Shown: positions 4,075-19,555 of the stretch, piece after piece
How positions within the stretch are numbered: position 1 is the first letter of the stretch
Layout: each line of letters starts with the position of its first letter
Source: a phage
DNA length: 21,210 nt
Reading direction: 5' to 3' (one strand)
Assembly (NCBI GenBank): GCA_012690745.1
Contig: GCA_012690745.1_4086.5
The notes under the pieces: model-generated
Seen by the model: only the letters and a program-made list of their open reading frames with translations
What the model was told of the DNA's origin: nothing
The model's database searches: none
Program-made: the position numbers and the translations under genes

Positions 4075-4102
4075 TTGACATAAGATATCAGTACTGTATA
4101 AT
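4075..4102 (+). promoter_or_regulatory. sigma70-type promoter TTGACA-16-TATAAT
   Basis: TTGACA 4075..4080, spacer ending gtactg, TATAAT 4097..4102; same spacer-end motif as promoters at 8385 and 18736. Confidence 0.6.
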
Positions 4103-7505: not shown

Positions 7506-8168
7506 ATGTTAGTTAATCTTAATTTCATCACTTCACCTGACTGGGCATTACGTGGGGTTTCTTTAAACTTCAAGGAAACTATGTTTGATTACATTGGTGA
7601 GTGTACATTGGTAAATGCAACTTTTGACCCAAATCATCCGTTCTGGGCTGAAATTCATGATCCAACTGTAAACAACAATACATCTGTTATGACTATTGTC
7701 CAGACTAAACATGCAGGTATCCTTGCAGGTTATCGACCTGGACATGCAATTGAACACTTCACTGATTACGATGTAGTGGATGAATACCCAATGATCCATG
7801 AAGATGGAAGTCTATACACATCTGAAGACTTCCGTGCTATCTTTAATAGTACTGATGATATTCTACCAAGTGGACGTCCACGTCCTGAGTCTTATCTTAT
7901 GCATCCATCTTATGGTGTAGCAGATACGCTTGAACAGATTATGAATAAGTACAAGAACCTAATTGAAGGTCCAGAAGAAATTGTCCTGTGCTATCACCCA
8001 GTACTTAAGTCTGAACAACCAAAGGATGGTGGATGGCGTTGGCATAAGAATGGTGAGTATATCGGTACTAAACGAAGTAAAGAACGTTTTGAGTACTTGT
8101 ATGATGAACCAGATGTTGATGTGGTTTTGTGTTATAATTTTATTAAGGTGAAAAAGAAATGTATCTAG
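7506..8168 (+). CDS. hypothetical protein
   Basis: Track start 7488 is TTG; ATG 7506 has GAGGA 6 nt upstream. 220 aa. Confidence 0.65.
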   Translation: MLVNLNFITSPDWALRGVSLNFKETMFDYIGECTLVNATFDPNHPFWAEIHDPTVNNNTSVMTIVQTKHAGILAGYRPGHAIEHFTDYDVVDEYPMIHEDGSLYTSEDFRAIFNSTDDILPSGRPRPESYLMHPSYGVADTLEQIMNKYKNLIEGPEEIVLCYHPVLKSEQPKDGGWRWHKNGEYIGTKRSKERFEYLYDEPDVDVVLCYNFIKVKKKCI

Positions 8169-8401
8169 TACTAAGTTTTGTTGTTGCACTATTGTTTATG
8201 TTCTATCCTACACTAGTGGCATTAGCCACTAGACGAACGATGGTAGATCTCACTACTGTATTCTTGCTAAACGTGGCATTAGTACTGGTGTCTATTATCA
8301 TTCCAGTGAGCTTTACAGTTATTGATATTATTTCGGTATTACTCTTCGTGTTAAGTTATCTTATGCTTATTGAAGAAACAAATGTTGACAAACGTTCGTA
8401 G
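8159..8401 (+). CDS. small integral membrane protein
   Basis: AAGGTG upstream of ATG; almost entirely hydrophobic (two predicted TM helices). Confidence 0.6.
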   Translation: MYLVLSFVVALLFMFYPTLVALATRRTMVDLTTVFLLNVALVLVSIIIPVSFTVIDIISVLLFVLSYLMLIEETNVDKRS

Positions 8402-8412
8402 TACTGTATAAT
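8385..8412 (+). promoter_or_regulatory. sigma70-type promoter TTGACA-16-TATAAT
   Basis: TTGACA 8385..8390, spacer ending gtactg, TATAAT 8407..8412; overlaps the 3' end of the preceding gene. Confidence 0.6.
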
Positions 8413-8458
8413 GGTTCCTGTAGTCTGAAACTTAACACTTAAACTTGAGGTAAAAAAT

Positions 8459-8785
8459 ATGCTATCAGTACTAATTTCAATTCCGTCTTTAATTCTGATT
8501 TGGCTTCTGGTTTACGAATGCTTCATTACTGATGATAATGATAAAAAAGAGTTCTCTGAGTTGTTTATGCTTGATTCACCGATTGTGCGTATTTTCTATG
8601 CAGTCGTTGTGGTTTCAGTAATTGTATGGGTTTTGAGTTTTATCTTCCCACTCGGTGCAGTAGTTAAAACTTTGGATTTAGTTGAGAACTTTGTTGCAAT
8701 TATGTGGCTAATCAAAGCACTATTTGCAGGAAATGTTAAAATTTGGATTGATATTATCAAATTCAAGTTCACGAATAAGATGTAA
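8459..8785 (+). CDS. small integral membrane protein
   Basis: GAGGT 7 nt upstream of ATG; multiple hydrophobic segments. Confidence 0.6.
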   Translation: MLSVLISIPSLILIWLLVYECFITDDNDKKEFSELFMLDSPIVRIFYAVVVVSVIVWVLSFIFPLGAVVKTLDLVENFVAIMWLIKALFAGNVKIWIDIIKFKFTNKM

Positions 8786-8810
8786 CAGTGAAAATATCTC
8801 TATAGTATTA

Positions 8811-8845
8811 AATACTTCTGTACATATATATAGTACAGAAGTATT
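8811..8845 (+). terminator. 13-bp perfect-stem hairpin, probable terminator
   Basis: aatacttctgtac (8811..8823) / gtacagaagtatt (8833..8845) with a 9-nt AT loop, followed by a T-rich tract (ttctcgtt); intergenic. Confidence 0.45.
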
Positions 8846-8863
8846 TCTCGTTAGAGGTTTGTT

Positions 8864-9223
8864 ATGAAGAGTTATATAAAATTAATAGCACTTGTGTGTG
8901 CATTATTTTCATGTTTTAGTTATGGTGCAGCAGCAGAAACATATTGTCGTAGTACTAAGGGAACGTGGCATGTATTGACTAACGACCCTAGAAATGGTAA
9001 AAATATAGTTGTTGATGGTGTGATTTATCGTTTTAAAGTAGAAAGTATTATCGGTAATAAAAAAATCTCGACTTATAGAGATGATTCTGGTACATTAGCA
9101 AACGTAATATTAATTGTAGACCCAAGAACTGGTAATGGTGATATCTATATAGTAATTTACTTGGACTCATCAGTACGCCGTGACCTAGATATAGATAAAT
9201 TGAACTTACACTGTGAAATATAG
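8864..9223 (+). CDS. putative secreted protein
   Basis: AGAGG 7 nt upstream; MKSYIKLIALVCALFSCFSYGAAAE looks like a cleavable signal peptide. Confidence 0.65.
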   Translation: MKSYIKLIALVCALFSCFSYGAAAETYCRSTKGTWHVLTNDPRNGKNIVVDGVIYRFKVESIIGNKKISTYRDDSGTLANVILIVDPRTGNGDIYIVIYLDSSVRRDLDIDKLNLHCEI

Positions 9224-9233
9224 GACTTAAAAA

Positions 9234-9611
9234 ATGGTAAACACTATTTTACTTTTGTTGTTGAATATTCCAATTATTCTGTCTTTTTTAATTTCTATTT
9301 TTATGGCAGGATATTGTTTAGTTGCAGTAATTCATTTCATTTTAACAAACAAATATGTCCTAATTTCTAAGCTTGATTCTATTTTTGCTTGCGATTCGAT
9401 TGCTTATAACTTGTGGTTAATTTGTTCTTGCATTATGGGAGTAACTTTCCTTCTGTATGTATTTGATGTCCTTGACCAAAAGTTCGTATACATCAGTACT
9501 GGATTGGCTCTTTATCCTGCTACGTGGTACTTGATTTACGTTGGTGATATATGGTATAGTACTTATAAAGAATATCAGTACAAGAAATCACTTAACGTTG
9601 GAGGAAAATAA
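9234..9611 (+). CDS. integral membrane protein
   Basis: TAGGA upstream; several hydrophobic segments. Confidence 0.6.
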   Translation: MVNTILLLLLNIPIILSFLISIFMAGYCLVAVIHFILTNKYVLISKLDSIFACDSIAYNLWLICSCIMGVTFLLYVFDVLDQKFVYISTGLALYPATWYLIYVGDIWYSTYKEYQYKKSLNVGGK

Positions 9612-9613
9612 TC

Positions 9614-9964
9614 ATGAAAATTATTTTATTTTTTGTATGTATGTTAATGTGTGGATTGTCATATGCTGAACCATTGGAAGGTTTAGTTTGTACAGATGGT
9701 AATATTAAACATATCTATCAAGGTGATAGTGACGATCGAGATATTGTATATATTGATGGACAATCATATACGTTTGTTAAAGAGCATACAGTAGGCGACA
9801 TTAGCTTCACTGAGTTTTCTAACGACACAGACCCTAACTTCTTAGCGTTTATTGAAGTAGATGTATATGAAGATAGTAATGGCACACAATATGCTAAATT
9901 AGTTATGATGCGTCGTGGTGCTAAAGAAACTAGTTTTGGTGGCTTGTGTAAATATAAGGATTGA
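9614..9964 (+). CDS. putative secreted protein
   Basis: GAGGA 8 nt upstream; MKIILFFVCMLMCGLSYAEP signal peptide. Confidence 0.65.
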   Translation: MKIILFFVCMLMCGLSYAEPLEGLVCTDGNIKHIYQGDSDDRDIVYIDGQSYTFVKEHTVGDISFTEFSNDTDPNFLAFIEVDVYEDSNGTQYAKLVMMRRGAKETSFGGLCKYKD

Positions 9965-9968
9965 TATT

Positions 9969-10160
9969 ATGTTGATTTATCAAAGTGATAATATTCGTGT
10001 TATGCAGCATCCCTACTTACAAATCTTTGATGTGCAGCAGTATATGGAAGGTGATGACCCAAGAACCTATGGTCGTAAGTATGATTACTTCACTGTAAAG
10101 CAGTGTAAAAATATTAACGAAGTACGACAATTAGTTCAAGAACTTCAAAACAAAGGTTGA
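9969..10160 (+). CDS. hypothetical protein
   Basis: Track start 9915 overlaps upstream gene; in-frame ATG 9969 has AAGGA 8 nt upstream. The TGA stop lies inside the downstream terminator hairpin. Confidence 0.55.
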   Translation: MLIYQSDNIRVMQHPYLQIFDVQQYMEGDDPRTYGRKYDYFTVKQCKNINEVRQLVQELQNKG

Positions 10161-10186
10161 CTTCGGTCAGCCTTTTTTGTTATAAT
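10152..10186 (+). promoter_or_regulatory. terminator hairpin fused to promoter (repeated module, copy A)
   Basis: ggttgac-ttcg-gtcagcc stem-loop (10155..10172) plus T6; TTGACT inside the stem (10157..10162), 18-nt spacer, TATAAT 10181..10186. Confidence 0.7.
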
Positions 10187-13571: not shown

Positions 13572-13579
13572 CAAAATAA

Positions 13580-13617
13580 GGTTGACTTCGGTCAGCCTTT
13601 TCTTTATACTATAAATA
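13580..13617 (+). promoter_or_regulatory. terminator hairpin fused to promoter (copy C) overlapping a TATAAATA late box
   Basis: ggttgac-ttcg-gtcagcc (13580..13597) plus T-rich run; TTGACT 13583..13588; exact TATAAATA at 13610..13617. Confidence 0.65.
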
Positions 13618-15998: not shown

Positions 15999-16006
15999 TA
16001 ATAAAA

Positions 16007-16039
16007 GGGTTGACTTCGGTCAGCCTTTTTTGTTATGAT
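16007..16039 (+). promoter_or_regulatory. terminator hairpin fused to promoter (copy E)
   Basis: gggttgac-ttcg-gtcagcc (16007..16025) plus T6; TTGACT 16010..16015, 18-nt spacer, TATGAT 16034..16039. Confidence 0.7.
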
Positions 16040-16067
16040 GTTGGTATTAACTACAGAGGATAAAGTA

Positions 16068-16709
16068 ATGACTAAGCAAGACATATTCAAAACTTTAATT
16101 GACATTTTGCGTCCATCAAAAACTCGTTGTGCGATGGAGTTTGATATTCCTTATGCTGAACGCGTAATCTTTCCACAAGTTAAAGCTGCTGGACTTACTT
16201 TGCTTGGAATGGGGATGTACTCTGTAGTAGTTGAACATAAAAACTATCCTGGGCGTGCATTTAAAGTAACCACTTCACGCTGGGATGGTTTTCGTGCTTA
16301 TGCAAAGTACTGCATTGAAAACGCAGGAACCAAGTTTCTTCCAGTGATCTACAGTGCAAACGAACAAGGAAACTTTGGATGGTATGAGATGGACAAGTAC
16401 TATCCTATAATTAAACAAAAAAATAATTATGATGACTTTGTTAGTACTAAAATTGGAGATTTATATTCTTATGCACATGCTGGTCAGTACGCTACTTCAG
16501 TGAATGATATGCGTGGAAATTCTGAAGAGATTGCTATTGCGACGGTCGCTGCTAACATCATGAAAGAGTTTCACGGGCGTTTTGTACCAGACATTCATTC
16601 CAGTAATGTCATGATGGATAAAGATGGCAATGTATTCATTACTGATCCTCTTTCGTGTGATGTACGTAGAGAAATACCAGTTACTGAAGAAGATCCAGTT
16701 TTTTATTGA
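16068..16709 (+). CDS. protein-kinase-like (atypical kinase fold) protein
   Basis: Track start 16035 lies inside the -10 box; ATG 16068 has GAGGA 7 nt upstream. Gly-rich loop LLGMGMYSVVV, candidate beta3 Lys in RAFKV, catalytic-loop-like VPDIHSSNVMMD and DFG-like ITD in canonical order. Confidence 0.65.
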   Translation: MTKQDIFKTLIDILRPSKTRCAMEFDIPYAERVIFPQVKAAGLTLLGMGMYSVVVEHKNYPGRAFKVTTSRWDGFRAYAKYCIENAGTKFLPVIYSANEQGNFGWYEMDKYYPIIKQKNNYDDFVSTKIGDLYSYAHAGQYATSVNDMRGNSEEIAIATVAANIMKEFHGRFVPDIHSSNVMMDKDGNVFITDPLSCDVRREIPVTEEDPVFY

Positions 16710-16770
16710 CAGAACTGATGTTCTGGTGTATTCTTAATAAACCATAAAAATTGCGGTAAAGGATAAAATC

Positions 16771-17052
16771 ATGCGTTCATTTGAAAACTTAATAGGTAAG
16801 CATCTTTTATCTGAAATTGATGCAGACGTTAAAGAATTATCCAAATCAAAAAGTTACATTCATTTGGATGAACTGTTTATTAAGTACGGTGAGATTGGTT
16901 TTAAGTCATTATTTGTTTTTACTATGAAAGTACATAGTTTAAAGTACTTCGATTTGAGTGCTAAAGATGGTGAACCGAATCTATATTACATGTATTACCT
17001 TAAGAACAAAGATGAAGCTAATACATTACTCTCTGAATATATATTGGGGTAA
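16771..17052 (+). CDS. hypothetical protein
   Basis: AAAGGA 7 nt upstream; 93 aa. Confidence 0.6.
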   Translation: MRSFENLIGKHLLSEIDADVKELSKSKSYIHLDELFIKYGEIGFKSLFVFTMKVHSLKYFDLSAKDGEPNLYYMYYLKNKDEANTLLSEYILG

Positions 17053-17054
17053 AA

Positions 17055-17393
17055 ATGGAACAATATTTTGAATTAATAAACAAAGTATCATTTTATGTAG
17101 TATCTTTGGTTTGGGTGTATTATATGTTTTGCTACATTATTGCATTCTTCCGATACACTACTTTATATGAACGTATCTACTATGATGCCCCAATTTCATT
17201 CTTGATGTTTTGTGCATGTACGTGGGGAATATTAGAAGTACTGATATGTGGGTATAGTACTGATGAATTAAATCTGGTATCGGTCTTGACTGGGTTTTCA
17301 TTTGTTGTTATGATAGCTGCCGTTCCAGTATGGTTGTTCTTTGGACTAGTTCATCGCATTGATATATGGCGTTCTAATATCCCTGAAAAGTAA
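17055..17393 (+). CDS. small membrane protein, tandem paralog 1 of 3
   Basis: Three hydrophobic segments; shares FRYTTLYERIY and C-terminal R…NIPEK with the two following ORFs. Confidence 0.6.
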   Translation: MEQYFELINKVSFYVVSLVWVYYMFCYIIAFFRYTTLYERIYYDAPISFLMFCACTWGILEVLICGYSTDELNLVSVLTGFSFVVMIAAVPVWLFFGLVHRIDIWRSNIPEK

Positions 17394-17402
17394 GGATTGG
17401 TA

Positions 17403-17744
17403 ATGATTTATTACACTAACATGTTTGCCTATGCTGTTGCTTGCATTTACATTGTGTACTTCTTATTCGGTGGAGTACTGTGCTTCTTTAAGTACAAAAC
17501 GTTGTTCAACCGAATGTACCCAAATCATCCAATTGTAGTTGTACTTTTGATTCTTTCAGTTTCTCAAATAATCGTTGAAACTACAATGGGTATCAGTAGT
17601 GTACATTATAGTTTTGGTACTATAGTAATTATTACTATGCTTATTGCATACATTTTAGTACTTGGATATGGTATCTTTGGTAATATTGGTATGAAAATGT
17701 ATCATCGAATTAAAACATTACGTGATAATCTACCGGAGCGTTGA
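17403..17744 (+). CDS. small membrane protein, tandem paralog 2 of 3
   Basis: Track start 17397 is TTG; ATG 17403 has AAGGA 6 nt upstream. FKYKTLFNRMY and C-terminal LRDNLPER. Confidence 0.6.
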   Translation: MIYYTNMFAYAVACIYIVYFLFGGVLCFFKYKTLFNRMYPNHPIVVVLLILSVSQIIVETTMGISSVHYSFGTIVIITMLIAYILVLGYGIFGNIGMKMYHRIKTLRDNLPER

Positions 17745-17745
17745 T

Positions 17746-18090
17746 ATGTATAATTTGAACCTAATCTCATATATTATAACAACACTGTTTACATTCTATG
17801 CCTTTGTTGGTATAATCCTACTGTACTTTAAATTTTATAAAGTGTTTAACCGTTTCTATCCTTCAATGGAGAATGAGTTTTTCTTTGTGTTGTACGTAGG
17901 TTACACATTAATGGCTACATGTTTCACTGTAGCCGATGGTGTCATCGGCATTAAAACTGATTCCCCAAATGGTAGTACGCTGGTTGCATTTATTCTTACT
18001 GGATTCCTTGCAACTTATATAGCCTTCATTACAACATGGTCAGTGGTTGAATTTCTCTTGCGACTACGAACGAATATGCCGAATCGATAG
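17746..18090 (+). CDS. small membrane protein, tandem paralog 3 of 3
   Basis: Track start 17722 is GTG inside the previous gene; ATG 17746 has GGAG 7 nt upstream. FKFYKVFNRFY and C-terminal LRTNMPNR. Confidence 0.6.
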   Translation: MYNLNLISYIITTLFTFYAFVGIILLYFKFYKVFNRFYPSMENEFFFVLYVGYTLMATCFTVADGVIGIKTDSPNGSTLVAFILTGFLATYIAFITTWSVVEFLLRLRTNMPNR

Positions 18091-18099
18091 GAGACATAT

Positions 18100-18354
18100 A
18101 TGTTTGCGTTGCGTAATAAAAACACTAAAGAATTATTATGTATTGATACCGTATGGGATTGTGCGGGGTCAACTACAGTTCTTGAAGAAGGAACTGGATA
18201 TTGCGTGTTTGTTGTACATGATAGGAATGAACTCGAATTATTACTTGCTGAGTTCAATGCTGGTGGTAATCCTAACAGTACTGAATACCCTGAGATTATC
18301 AATCCAGCACCACCAGGCTCTTATGAAATTCTACAACTGTGGGAGTTGAAGTAA
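18100..18354 (+). CDS. hypothetical protein
   Basis: AGGAG 6 nt upstream; 84 aa. Confidence 0.6.
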   Translation: MFALRNKNTKELLCIDTVWDCAGSTTVLEEGTGYCVFVVHDRNELELLLAEFNAGGNPNSTEYPEIINPAPPGSYEILQLWELK

Positions 18355-18734
18355 TGCGTCAAATGCACAAAGTAACCGAGCTAAACAAGCGTCTGGTTAA
18401 ACAATCAATGTTCGAGGATAAAGAGTCTTATTATAACTTTAAACGTGCAGTAGAGGCTGCTATCCACATTCAGAAGCTTAAAGAACGTGGTTGTATTATT
18501 CTGGAAAATGGTTCGGAAGTTGTAACGGATGACTTTAGTGTAGCGTTTGATGTTTCACCTGACGGGACGCTATCAATGCCCCGCTTAGGAACTGGAAACA
18601 TGACTGTTTGGGTTGGCTTCACTATGGGGAATGTACCTGGTACTGTGTACGTAGATGATGCGGAATTGAAAGACAGTTTCAAAAACTTATCTTATCTTGA
18701 ACCACAATACGCACATGAAATGAATTTATTTTGA
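18354..18734 (+). CDS. hypothetical protein
   Basis: Track start 18339 overlaps upstream gene; TAATG-coupled ATG at 18354 preferred. Confidence 0.55.
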   Translation: MRQMHKVTELNKRLVKQSMFEDKESYYNFKRAVEAAIHIQKLKERGCIILENGSEVVTDDFSVAFDVSPDGTLSMPRLGTGNMTVWVGFTMGNVPGTVYVDDAELKDSFKNLSYLEPQYAHEMNLF

Positions 18735-18735
18735 G

Positions 18736-18763
18736 TTGACAAACACATTCTGTACTGTATAAT
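18736..18763 (+). promoter_or_regulatory. sigma70-type promoter TTGACA-16-TATAAT
   Basis: TTGACA 18736..18741, spacer ending gtactg, TATAAT 18758..18763; followed by a 7-bp leader hairpin gggatga/tcatccc at 18776..18794. Confidence 0.6.
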
Positions 18764-18812
18764 GCTTATCAAGGGGGGATGAACTTCTCATCCCTACAAT
18801 CGAGGAACTACC

Positions 18813-19367
18813 ATGATTACTTTTAAGAAAACTGCTAACCACATCCATGAAATCTACATTAACGGTCACAAAGCTGGCCTTCTTCGTTTACTCGCCCATC
18901 ACCCTGATGCTACCGTATCTGATAATGAACCTAAAGATTGGCGTGTATTTTTCTTTGGAAAGTACAGTGATTTTCAAGTATCAAACCTGAAGAACATTCG
19001 TTCAGTATGCACGTTAACTGAAATTAAAGAAAAGTTAGCACAAGCATTGAAAACTAATCCAGATGGTGTTCTTCCACCTGATAACTTTGTAGAGAAAGGT
19101 TATGCCTTAGCTCATTTCAAAGATGGTACTATTCAATCTATCAGTACTGAATATGAATATCATTGGACTGAGTACTTCACTTATGGTTCGAGTAATACAT
19201 TGATGGATTCACGTAGTAAATTGGAAGAAGTACTGACTCGTATGAATGAACGCGAGCGTCAGTTATATGACAAACCAGAAATGTGGAGTTCAACTTACAT
19301 TGACCGTATTGACTATGTTATTATGACTCCAATCTTTGACACTGCTTACTATGATTCTTTGAAATAA
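18813..19367 (+). CDS. hypothetical protein
   Basis: GAGGA 6 nt upstream; 184 aa. Confidence 0.65.
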   Translation: MITFKKTANHIHEIYINGHKAGLLRLLAHHPDATVSDNEPKDWRVFFFGKYSDFQVSNLKNIRSVCTLTEIKEKLAQALKTNPDGVLPPDNFVEKGYALAHFKDGTIQSISTEYEYHWTEYFTYGSSNTLMDSRSKLEEVLTRMNERERQLYDKPEMWSSTYIDRIDYVIMTPIFDTAYYDSLK

Positions 19368-19378
19368 GGATAACTTAT

Positions 19379-19555
19379 ATGAAACTACGTACTCGTAATC
19401 GACTGATGGATGCACTGTACCATGAACAGCTTTCACTGAATGAAGTGAAGCGTCAGTTAATGTACACATATCAGTTTCCCGCTCGCATTGCAAAACAACA
19501 TGCTAAAGAATTGCTGAAAGAAGCAATCGAGTACTGGGAATCTGATTCATACTAA
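19379..19555 (+). CDS. hypothetical 58-aa basic, helical protein
   Basis: AAGGA 8 nt upstream of ATG 19379; MKLRTRNRLMDALYHEQLSLNEVKRQL… ; below the ORF-track size cutoff. Confidence 0.45.
   Translation: MKLRTRNRLMDALYHEQLSLNEVKRQLMYTYQFPARIAKQHAKELLKEAIEYWESDSY

Follow-up and report, generated by a model that had tools for sequence, protein, structure and literature searches.

The phage DNA analysed here is a stretch of 21,210 nucleotides (contig GCA_012690745.1_4086.5 of assembly GCA_012690745.1, hereafter the window). At positions 17055-18090 of its + strand it encodes three consecutive small membrane proteins, which we call c1, c2, and c3. Alignments, shuffling controls, and profile searches give good support to the view that c1, c2, and c3 are true homologs that arose as ancient tandem paralogs. 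For their role we favor, with a probability of only about 35%, a reading in which the three proteins would be early inner-membrane takeover or exclusion factors, resembling the T4 protein Imm in logic and not in ancestry. We infer only from timing, location, and evolutionary pattern that the most plausible class of function is one that excludes superinfecting phages or interferes with host membrane systems. The triplet proteins are probably not the lysis holin.

The c1 gene (17055-17393) encodes 112 amino acids (aa) and begins at an ATG with the Shine-Dalgarno sequence GGGG 5 nt upstream. The c2 gene (17403-17744; 113 aa) has an ATG at 17403 preceded by AAGGA at 6 nt, and the alternative TTG at 17397 that appears in the list of open reading frames (ORFs) is less likely. 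For c3 (17746-18090; 114 aa), the ATG at 17746, with GGAG 7 nt upstream, was preferred over a GTG at 17722. These Shine-Dalgarno-backed starts agree with the annotation of the jumbo phage 121Q (121Q position = window position + 88,774), where the three proteins are gp207, gp208, and gp209, each labelled "hypothetical protein". The genes are closely packed, with gaps of 2 nt between the upstream gp206 homolog and c1, 9 nt between c1 and c2, 1 nt between c2 and c3, and 9 nt between c3 and the next gene. Each product carries three predicted transmembrane (TM) segments.

Composition-adjusted BLASTP gave E values of 1e-10 for c1-c2, 2e-6 for c2-c3, and 4e-4 for c1-c3. None of 2000 global shuffles reached the real Smith-Waterman score for any pair (z = 12.3, 8.3, and 6.1, respectively). 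With 12-residue-block shuffles, which keep the hydrophobic layout, z was 8.9 for c1-c2, 5.6 for c2-c3, and 3.1 for c1-c3, and the real score was reached in 0/2000, 0/2000, and 22/2000 cases. The weakest pair, c1-c3, is linked via c2 and via the family profile. Indeed, the profile of the PHROGs family phrog_19285 matched c1 (E = 3.9e-59), c2 (E = 1.4e-58), and c3 (E = 4.3e-4) end to end, as well as 19 out of 19 aligned family members, those of the c3 type being only marginal matches. With the family hidden Markov model (HMM), c3, the fastest-evolving and most diverged of the copies, gave an E of about 1e-38. A profile made from the three copies recovered diverged members from other genera, with the motifs at equivalent places. 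An explanation by hydrophobic composition and chance motifs, without real homology, could appeal to the c1-c3 comparison taken alone (E = 4e-4; 22/2000), but the scores of c1-c2 and c2-c3 stay highly significant when the shuffles preserve the layout, a single PHROG takes in every member, and the motifs of distant relatives are conserved in position. We therefore rejected a compositional artefact on the basis of both kinds of shuffle and the profile searches, and we give this explanation a negligible probability.

These tests bear out the first-pass annotation of this DNA, which had proposed three tandem paralogs of ~115 aa and had named merely compositional similarity as the objection that would undo the proposal; the three ORFs lie where it had placed them on the + strand, and the similarity exceeds composition. 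The loop motif that it described, F(R/K)Y.TL(Y/F).R.Y, is matched exactly by c1 (FRYTTLYERIY; loop-1 motif FFRYTTLYERIY, encoded at 17145-17180 on the + strand) and by c2 (FKYKTLFNRMY), whereas c3 has a degenerate form (FKFYKVFNRFY). Its C-terminal motif, N(I/L/M)P(E/N)(K/R), reads NIPEK in c1 (where RSNIPEK is encoded at 17370-17390, + strand), NLPER in c2, and NMPNR in c3. Positions that are invariant include N9, Y22, F32, R40, G66, R106, and P110 in c1 numbering. End-to-end amino-acid identity among the copies is 20-26%, and a search for an in-register DNA repeat between them found none remaining; the duplication must therefore be old, as had been suggested. The accompanying idea of retention also held, since three copies occur in the Asteriusvirus genomes that match the region and in the phages Turkey5 and JNE01, with ratios of nonsynonymous to synonymous substitution (dN/dS) of 0.15-0.30.

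Kyte-Doolittle profiles located three hydrophobic segments in every copy, in agreement with the AlphaFold2 (AF2) model of c2 and with the three TM segments per protein of the first description. Counts of lysine plus arginine in c1, c2, and c3 are 1, 0, and 0 at the N-terminus, 2, 3, and 3 in loop 1, 0, 0, and 1 in loop 2, and 3, 5, and 3 in the C-terminal tail. Because of these counts, the positive-inside rule predicts an N-out/C-in topology, in which the N-terminus and loop 2 would be periplasmic and loop 1 and the C-terminal tail cytoplasmic; the membrane in question is presumably the inner membrane. The conserved basic features are the loop sequence FFKY..L..R.Y and a C-terminal tail ending R-x-N/K-Φ-P-E-R/K. 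The AF2 model of c2, computed with 17 diverse family sequences, reached a predicted local distance difference test score (pLDDT) of 85 and a predicted template-modelling score (pTM) of 0.61. It has long helices at residues 2-28, 42-62, and 71-108, a short helix at 32-38, and a non-helical end formed by the last five residues, NLPER. A model of c1 from a shallow alignment of 9 sequences was poor (pLDDT 65) and was left out of the fold search. An acidic residue stands near the periplasmic end of TM2 in nearly every member of the family alignment.

Compared with the orthologs of phages BF17 and ph0011 (dS 0.3-0.6), dN/dS was 0.19 for c1, 0.15 for c2, and 0.25-0.30 for c3, within a range of 0.10-0.35 for the neighboring genes. 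This purifying selection indicates that all three are functional genes on the + strand. Against Turkey5, identities were 42, 25, and 30% for c1, c2, and c3, and 55, 78, and 77% for the gp206, gp211, and gp212 homologs; over this greater distance the copies have changed much faster than the genes that flank them. Among 13 non-redundant family members, the mean sum-of-pairs BLOSUM62 score was 1.2 in TM1, 1.6 in loop 1, and 1.6 in the C-terminal tail, and fell to 0.34 in TM2, 0.13 in loop 2, and 0.05 in TM3, all three of which are essentially free. Close orthologs gave a dN/dS of 0.09 for the N-terminus, TM1, and loop 1 together, and 0.28 for the hairpin formed by TM2, loop 2, and TM3.

The triplet appears to be transcribed as part of a unit at 16771-18734, which comprises the gp206 homolog, c1, c2, c3, and the gp210 and gp211 homologs and is delimited by conserved promoters at both ends. 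At the 5′ end, a candidate σ70-type promoter (TTGACA-17-TATTCT, 10/12 consensus matches) occupies 16706-16734 on the + strand, in a 61-nt gap that follows a kinase gene. Equivalently placed counterparts upstream of the gp206 homolog were found in ph0011 (TTGACA-17-TATTAT, 11/12) and Turkey5 (TTGACA-17-TATAAT, 12/12). At the 3′ end, a perfect σ70 promoter (TTGACA-16-TATAAT; 18736-18763, +) starts the next unit, and each of the four loci compared (the window, BF17, ph0011, and Turkey5) has a perfect 12/12 promoter after the last gene. Across the window, σ70 consensus sites with at least 11/12 matches number 13 on the + (coding) strand and 0 on the - strand, where first-order Markov simulations led us to expect about one per strand; three of the 13 are perfect (examples at 4075-4102, 8385-8412, and 18736-18763). 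Since the unit opens with a conserved promoter of the host σ70 type, the triplet is most likely made early by host RNA polymerase. Long regions of RpoD promoters in Rak2-like phages were likewise read as early or host-takeover regions in the paper on phage CBB (PMC5259590).

The promoters compared across relatives share a further feature, the sequence AGTACTGTATAAT, which recurs around the -10 element. Within c3, a site at 17788-17816 (+) reads TTTACA-17-TATAAT (11/12) with a TG extension; its counterpart in ph0011 scores 10/12, and BF17 and Turkey5 have none. It may serve the genes downstream as an internal promoter, or it may be a chance match. The gene at 18813 has in its 5′ leader, just past the perfect promoter, a 7-bp stem-loop (GGGATGA-ACTTC-TCATCCC; 18776-18794, +) that is kept in ph0011 and, via a change leaving a G-U pair, in Turkey5. 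This stem-loop is not a typical terminator because no T-run follows it.

Apart from the kinase, the genes around the triplet encode small soluble proteins without an assigned function. The kinase gene (16035-16709, +) is of the T7 gp0.7 type (phrog_15752, E = 2.5e-97) and its product has no Pfam match at E ≤ 1; BF17-type genomes lack it at this position, and a different ORF abuts their gp206 homolog. The gp206 homolog (16771-17052, +) is the first gene of the unit and encodes a 93-aa soluble protein (phrog_37917; dN/dS 0.11-0.12). Downstream of c3 come the gp210 homolog (18100-18354, +; 84 aa, soluble, phrog_8563), whose counterpart in phage RaK2 (locus L005, 1499-1753) also lies downstream of a family copy, and the gp211 homolog (18339-18734, +; 131 aa, soluble, phrog_7672), the last gene of the unit and its most widely conserved neighbor. 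In EJP2, Munch, Kae01, and RaK2, a gp211 homolog and a family member lie no more than about 3 kb apart. According to the 121Q annotation, c1-c3 are not virion-associated, while the nearby gp199 and gp201 are.

To place the triplet among phages, positions 16000-19500 of the window were compared by megablast. About 20 Escherichia/Salmonella Asteriusvirus jumbo phages, including JP4, PBECO4, 121Q, phAPEC6, and G17 (genome range 310-384 kb), matched over the full length at 99.6-98.6% identity. At least 80% of this 3.5-kb query was covered in 23 records, and the gp206-gp212 part alone in about ten more. By tblastn against annotated phages, c2 was present in 33 records, all of them Escherichia/Salmonella Asteriusvirus. 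In phage fEgEco12 the orthologs of the triplet are Gp560-562, at 322.6-323.6 kb, labelled "hypothetical" (PMC13070987). Among 5,426 complete E. coli genomes none matched the unit, which therefore belongs neither to the host nor to a prophage. One c3 ortholog, P0008 of the Salmonella phage SD-1_S14, is reduced to 101 aa by a 13-residue deletion in TM3 (…GSTL|AFITTW…).

A word-indexed search of 5.8 billion proteins returned orthologs of c1-c3 alone. When 1.84 billion cluster representatives were searched exhaustively with an HMMER profile, only 12 proteins scored E ≤ 1e-3; all have 89-116 aa, the same layout, and a C-terminal R-x-x-Φ-P-x-R/Q. Among annotated genomes, the family was confined to Rak2-like jumbo phages, namely Asteriusvirus, Alcyoneusvirus, and phages of the Munch/Kae01 type. 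Loci of distant relatives were retrieved around the conserved gp211 homolog and searched with the three-copy profile. Copy number varies by lineage, from three in Asteriusvirus and Turkey5 to one each, within the stretches examined, in EJP2, Salmonella phage Munch, and the Klebsiella phages fENko-Kae01 and RaK2. The single RaK2 copy is syntenic, being followed by one ORF, the gp210 homolog, and, farther on, the gp211 homolog; RaK2 and K64-1 orthologs share only 59% identity. The deeper Turkey5/JNE01 lineage, whose two phages have the same gene layout, holds three copies in a slot of four ORFs, with an unrelated gene sitting between copies b and c. This extra ORF of ~117 aa was considered as a fourth copy and rejected, as it is an unrelated lysine-rich soluble insert. 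The 117-aa ORF (…KPKKKAKKEVVKKQKP…) was seen in this lineage only (Turkey5 locus L002, 2954-3307; JNE01 locus L013, 3002-3355).

No relative of the family was found in Pfam, NCBIfam, PADLOC, the PDB, or fold libraries. The Pfam entry DUF350, a small bacterial membrane protein, reached at best 13.9 bits against a gathering cut-off of 26 and was hit by 2 of 19 members (E ≥ 0.056), and the defence models of PADLOC-DB yielded 0 families at E ≤ 1. The family is catalogued as phrog_19285 ("unknown function", PHROGs v4) and is unrelated to any studied protein; this entry is the family itself, and it gives no function, topology, motif, or paralogy and no link to the second array described below (phrog_19454, phrog_19046). 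The top viral matches of the c2 model in structure libraries were the "putative membrane proteins" A0A1L2CVT3 and A0A1L2CVT2 of CBB and K4F6S4 of Cronobacter phage GAP32, proteins of 112-116 aa from other Rak2-like jumbo phages. The two CBB proteins may be products of neighboring genes, since their accessions are consecutive. These structural matches were not significant (E = 0.67-1.2; template-modelling score (TM-score) 0.40-0.53). Neither the exhaustive profile search nor tblastn bridged the two groups, and tblastn with the RaK2 copy and gp226 and with gp210/gp211 as anchors found no link to CBB or GAP32.

The triplication described by the first-pass annotation was correct as to the three copies, but it missed a second array of the same superfamily outside the window. 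In 121Q (NC_025447), of which positions 1-159,000 of 348,532 were scanned for paralogs, gp224-gp232 (113,623-116,404; locus L009, 4623-7404), 3.6 kb past the 3′ end of the window, are nine small membrane ORFs of 111-123 aa assigned to phrog_19454, 19046, 27396, 26405, and 27618. Alignment of the 19-sequence triplet family with gp224-227 by hhalign gave a probability of 90.2% (E = 1.5e-6; 91 columns) with both motifs aligned. The weak secondary PHROG matches of the triplet family, phrog_19454 and phrog_19046, are the PHROGs of gp224/225 and gp226, and this relation is reciprocal; the family HMM scored second-array members at E = 1e-7 to 1e-2. Like the triplet, the array proteins (111-125 aa) have three hydrophobic segments, a W(Y/F)FK(R/K) sequence after TM1 (seen in gp224-227), and a basic tail, which in gp226 ends ELRNKIPEE. 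Unlike the triplet, they are much more diverged, and several have lost the P-E-R end (gp224/225 end ...KWGF and ...RGDF). In position, the array comes after a P-loop protein, gp223, whereas the triplet sits in the gp206-gp211 unit. An equivalent in EJP2 (314.2-316.5 kb; locus L014, 7778-10478) consists of six or seven such ORFs after a 55%-identical gp223 homolog, and these score on both profiles; the second array as a whole is counted at 7-9 genes. Because the two arrays are related, the triplet represents one locus of a superfamily with roughly ten copies per genome.

Three further observations concern this array. The products gp228 and gp229 (59 and 55 aa) appear to be one copy split by a frameshift. 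The annotation of the EJP2 gp223 homolog as "thioredoxin" looks wrong, since the protein carries a GxxGxGKT Walker A motif. In records of the SD-series Salmonella phages the second array is also partly absent or fragmented, and this, like the deletion in c3, could be a true loss or an assembly problem.

The first-pass annotation had also offered holin or antiholin control as one item in a generic list of functions. Class I holins of the λ S105 type have three TM segments, an N-out/C-in topology, and a charged C-terminal tail, and the triplet is like them in its size (about 105-115 aa), its three predicted helices, its predicted topology, and its basic tail, a likeness in generic features that serves as a lead only; one weak match among many in BFVD was to a "holin" (E = 3.6, not significant). 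In other respects the triplet differs from these holins. It lies in a conserved unit with an early-type σ70 promoter that adjoins a kinase of the host-shutoff type, its location is not that of a lysis cassette, and no endolysin gene adjoins it. Its three copies here, the further copies elsewhere, and its conserved cytoplasmic sequence motifs are unlike typical holins, and none of 19 members matched a holin family in Pfam (E ≤ 1) or PHROGs (E ≤ 0.1). The endolysin homolog of Rak2-like phages corresponds to 121Q gp532, which is far off and has its own N-terminal TM segment resembling a signal-arrest-release (SAR) sequence (PMC5259590). In fEgEco12 the "holin" is a 220-aa protein of the T4 T type at 246.8 kb and the "lysozyme" is at 118 kb (PMC13070987), 76 kb and 204 kb from the triplet, respectively. 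Since a candidate holin and an endolysin are encoded elsewhere, the promoters are of the early type, and the paralogs are many, a role of the triplet as class I-type holins or antiholins that time host lysis is very unlikely.

T4 Imm is a small early inner-membrane protein of a large virulent E. coli myovirus that brings about superinfection exclusion at the membrane. It is shorter than the triplet proteins, has fewer TM segments, and is encoded by a single gene. No homology to Imm was detected by sequence or profile among the Pfam, PHROGs, NCBIfam, and PDB matches or in the exhaustive search, and the likeness is one of analogy: the triplet proteins, like Imm, would be small early phage proteins of the inner membrane. 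On the reading that we favor, the triplet proteins would insert in the host inner membrane soon after infection and work there in takeover or exclusion, much as Imm, at the membrane, guards the infected cell against the entry of more phage DNA. A shared surface for anchoring or partner binding may be provided by TM1 and the cytoplasmic face, which are conserved, and the loosely constrained TM2-periplasmic loop-TM3 hairpin, which differs among the paralogs, could allow several copies to cover several targets.

Several points weigh against the exclusion or takeover reading. The N-out/C-in topology is a prediction, and the early timing is read from matches to promoter consensus. The literature yielded no transcriptome for this clade and no functional study of these genes. 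The surfaces that are best conserved are predicted to be cytoplasmic, whereas the components of an incoming phage would be met in the periplasm. Constraint on the hairpin appears relaxed, a pattern that suits "any hydrophobic hairpin" equally well as it does diversification of targets. Finally, positive selection was looked for and none was detected, regional dN/dS being at most 0.43. This result and the predicted cytoplasmic position of the conserved motifs weigh most heavily against the reading.

An arms race might have left signs of positive selection; their lack would fit better with a different and rather unlikely explanation, that the paralogs are subunits of one membrane complex. They would co-assemble as a hetero-oligomer, replaced by a homo-oligomer in single-copy phages, and form a small viroporin-like channel or a membrane anchor whose loop and C-terminal motifs recruit a cytoplasmic partner from phage or host, with roles for example in replication, assembly, or control of membrane energetics. 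Near-equal translation from coupled genes would be consistent with gaps of 1-9 nt, a Shine-Dalgarno sequence for each gene, and the single nucleotide between the c2 stop and the c3 start. Wherever the triplet occurs all three copies are kept together, TM1 and the cytoplasmic motifs could form an oligomer or partner interface, and the acidic residue near the end of TM2 would also suit a complex. However, relatives manage with a single copy at this locus, Turkey5 and JNE01 tolerate an insert between b and c with neither copy lost, and the 7-9 extra copies of the second array are hard to fit into one defined complex. The early region, membrane character, expansion of paralogs, and fast divergence that underlie the exclusion or takeover reading speak as well for counter-defence, in which the proteins would neutralise inner-membrane-associated immunity or abortive-infection effectors, membrane proteases, or transporters, the paralogs covering different host factors. 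The match of second-array gp226 to phrog_16874, a "membrane protein" of the PHROGs category moron/host takeover (E = 1.2e-5), points in the same direction. Nonetheless, we hold counter-defence to be doubtful, because the family resembles no known anti-defence protein, occurs neither in hosts nor in other phage groups exposed to these defences, and shows no sign of positive selection.

A broader proposal, more speculative and with a lower probability, would join the triplet and the 7-9-gene array into an arsenal specific to jumbo phages. It would consist of about ten modular inner-membrane adaptors, whose FFKY loop and R-x-N-Φ-P-E-R tail dock one partner while each hairpin engages a different membrane target, such as the injection machinery of an incoming phage or host membrane-bound defence effectors. 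If true, exclusion or counter-defence would here take the form of a diversified system of a kind not described so far.

Elsewhere in the window, a T-rich cluster at 8159-9964 (+) contains membrane ORFs at 8159-8401 (80 aa), 8459-8785 (108 aa), and 9234-9611 (125 aa), which alternate with signal-peptide ORFs at 8864-9223 (119 aa) and 9614-9964 (116 aa). The signal-peptide ORFs have a common DG..Y.F motif and look like paralogs. The membrane ORFs at 8159-9611 were tried as members of the triplet family and rejected by HMM; the two longer ones belong to other PHROGs (31401 and 31707). In Munch, a similar pair of signal-peptide and membrane ORFs (locus L004, 3203-3925) immediately precedes the gp211 homolog, beside the family copy. 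Two near-identical hairpins, AAAGGTTGACTTCGGTCAGCCTTT at 10152-10175 (+) and AAGGTTGACTTCGGTCAGCCTT at 13578-13599 (+), are each followed by T-runs and contain a -35-like TTGACT hexamer, which pairs with TATAAT or TATACT farther downstream; the hairpins may represent a repeated element that combines a terminator and a promoter.

Large phages commonly encode small membrane proteins in multiple copies, and in kind the triplet is ordinary, but the family is new to functional biology. In Rak2-like jumbo phages, which are promoted for therapy, more than 80% of the genes have no known function. With the present analysis, three "hypothetical proteins" become members of a defined family with a confident fold, a predicted topology, two conserved and predicted cytoplasmic motifs, a likely early unit, and a map of some ten paralogs per genome. 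If a role in exclusion or counter-defence is true, the family would matter for host range, for co-infection by phages in cocktails, and for the control of the host envelope by giant phages; otherwise, it would stand as a clean case of ancient tandem duplication within an accessory region of a phage genome.

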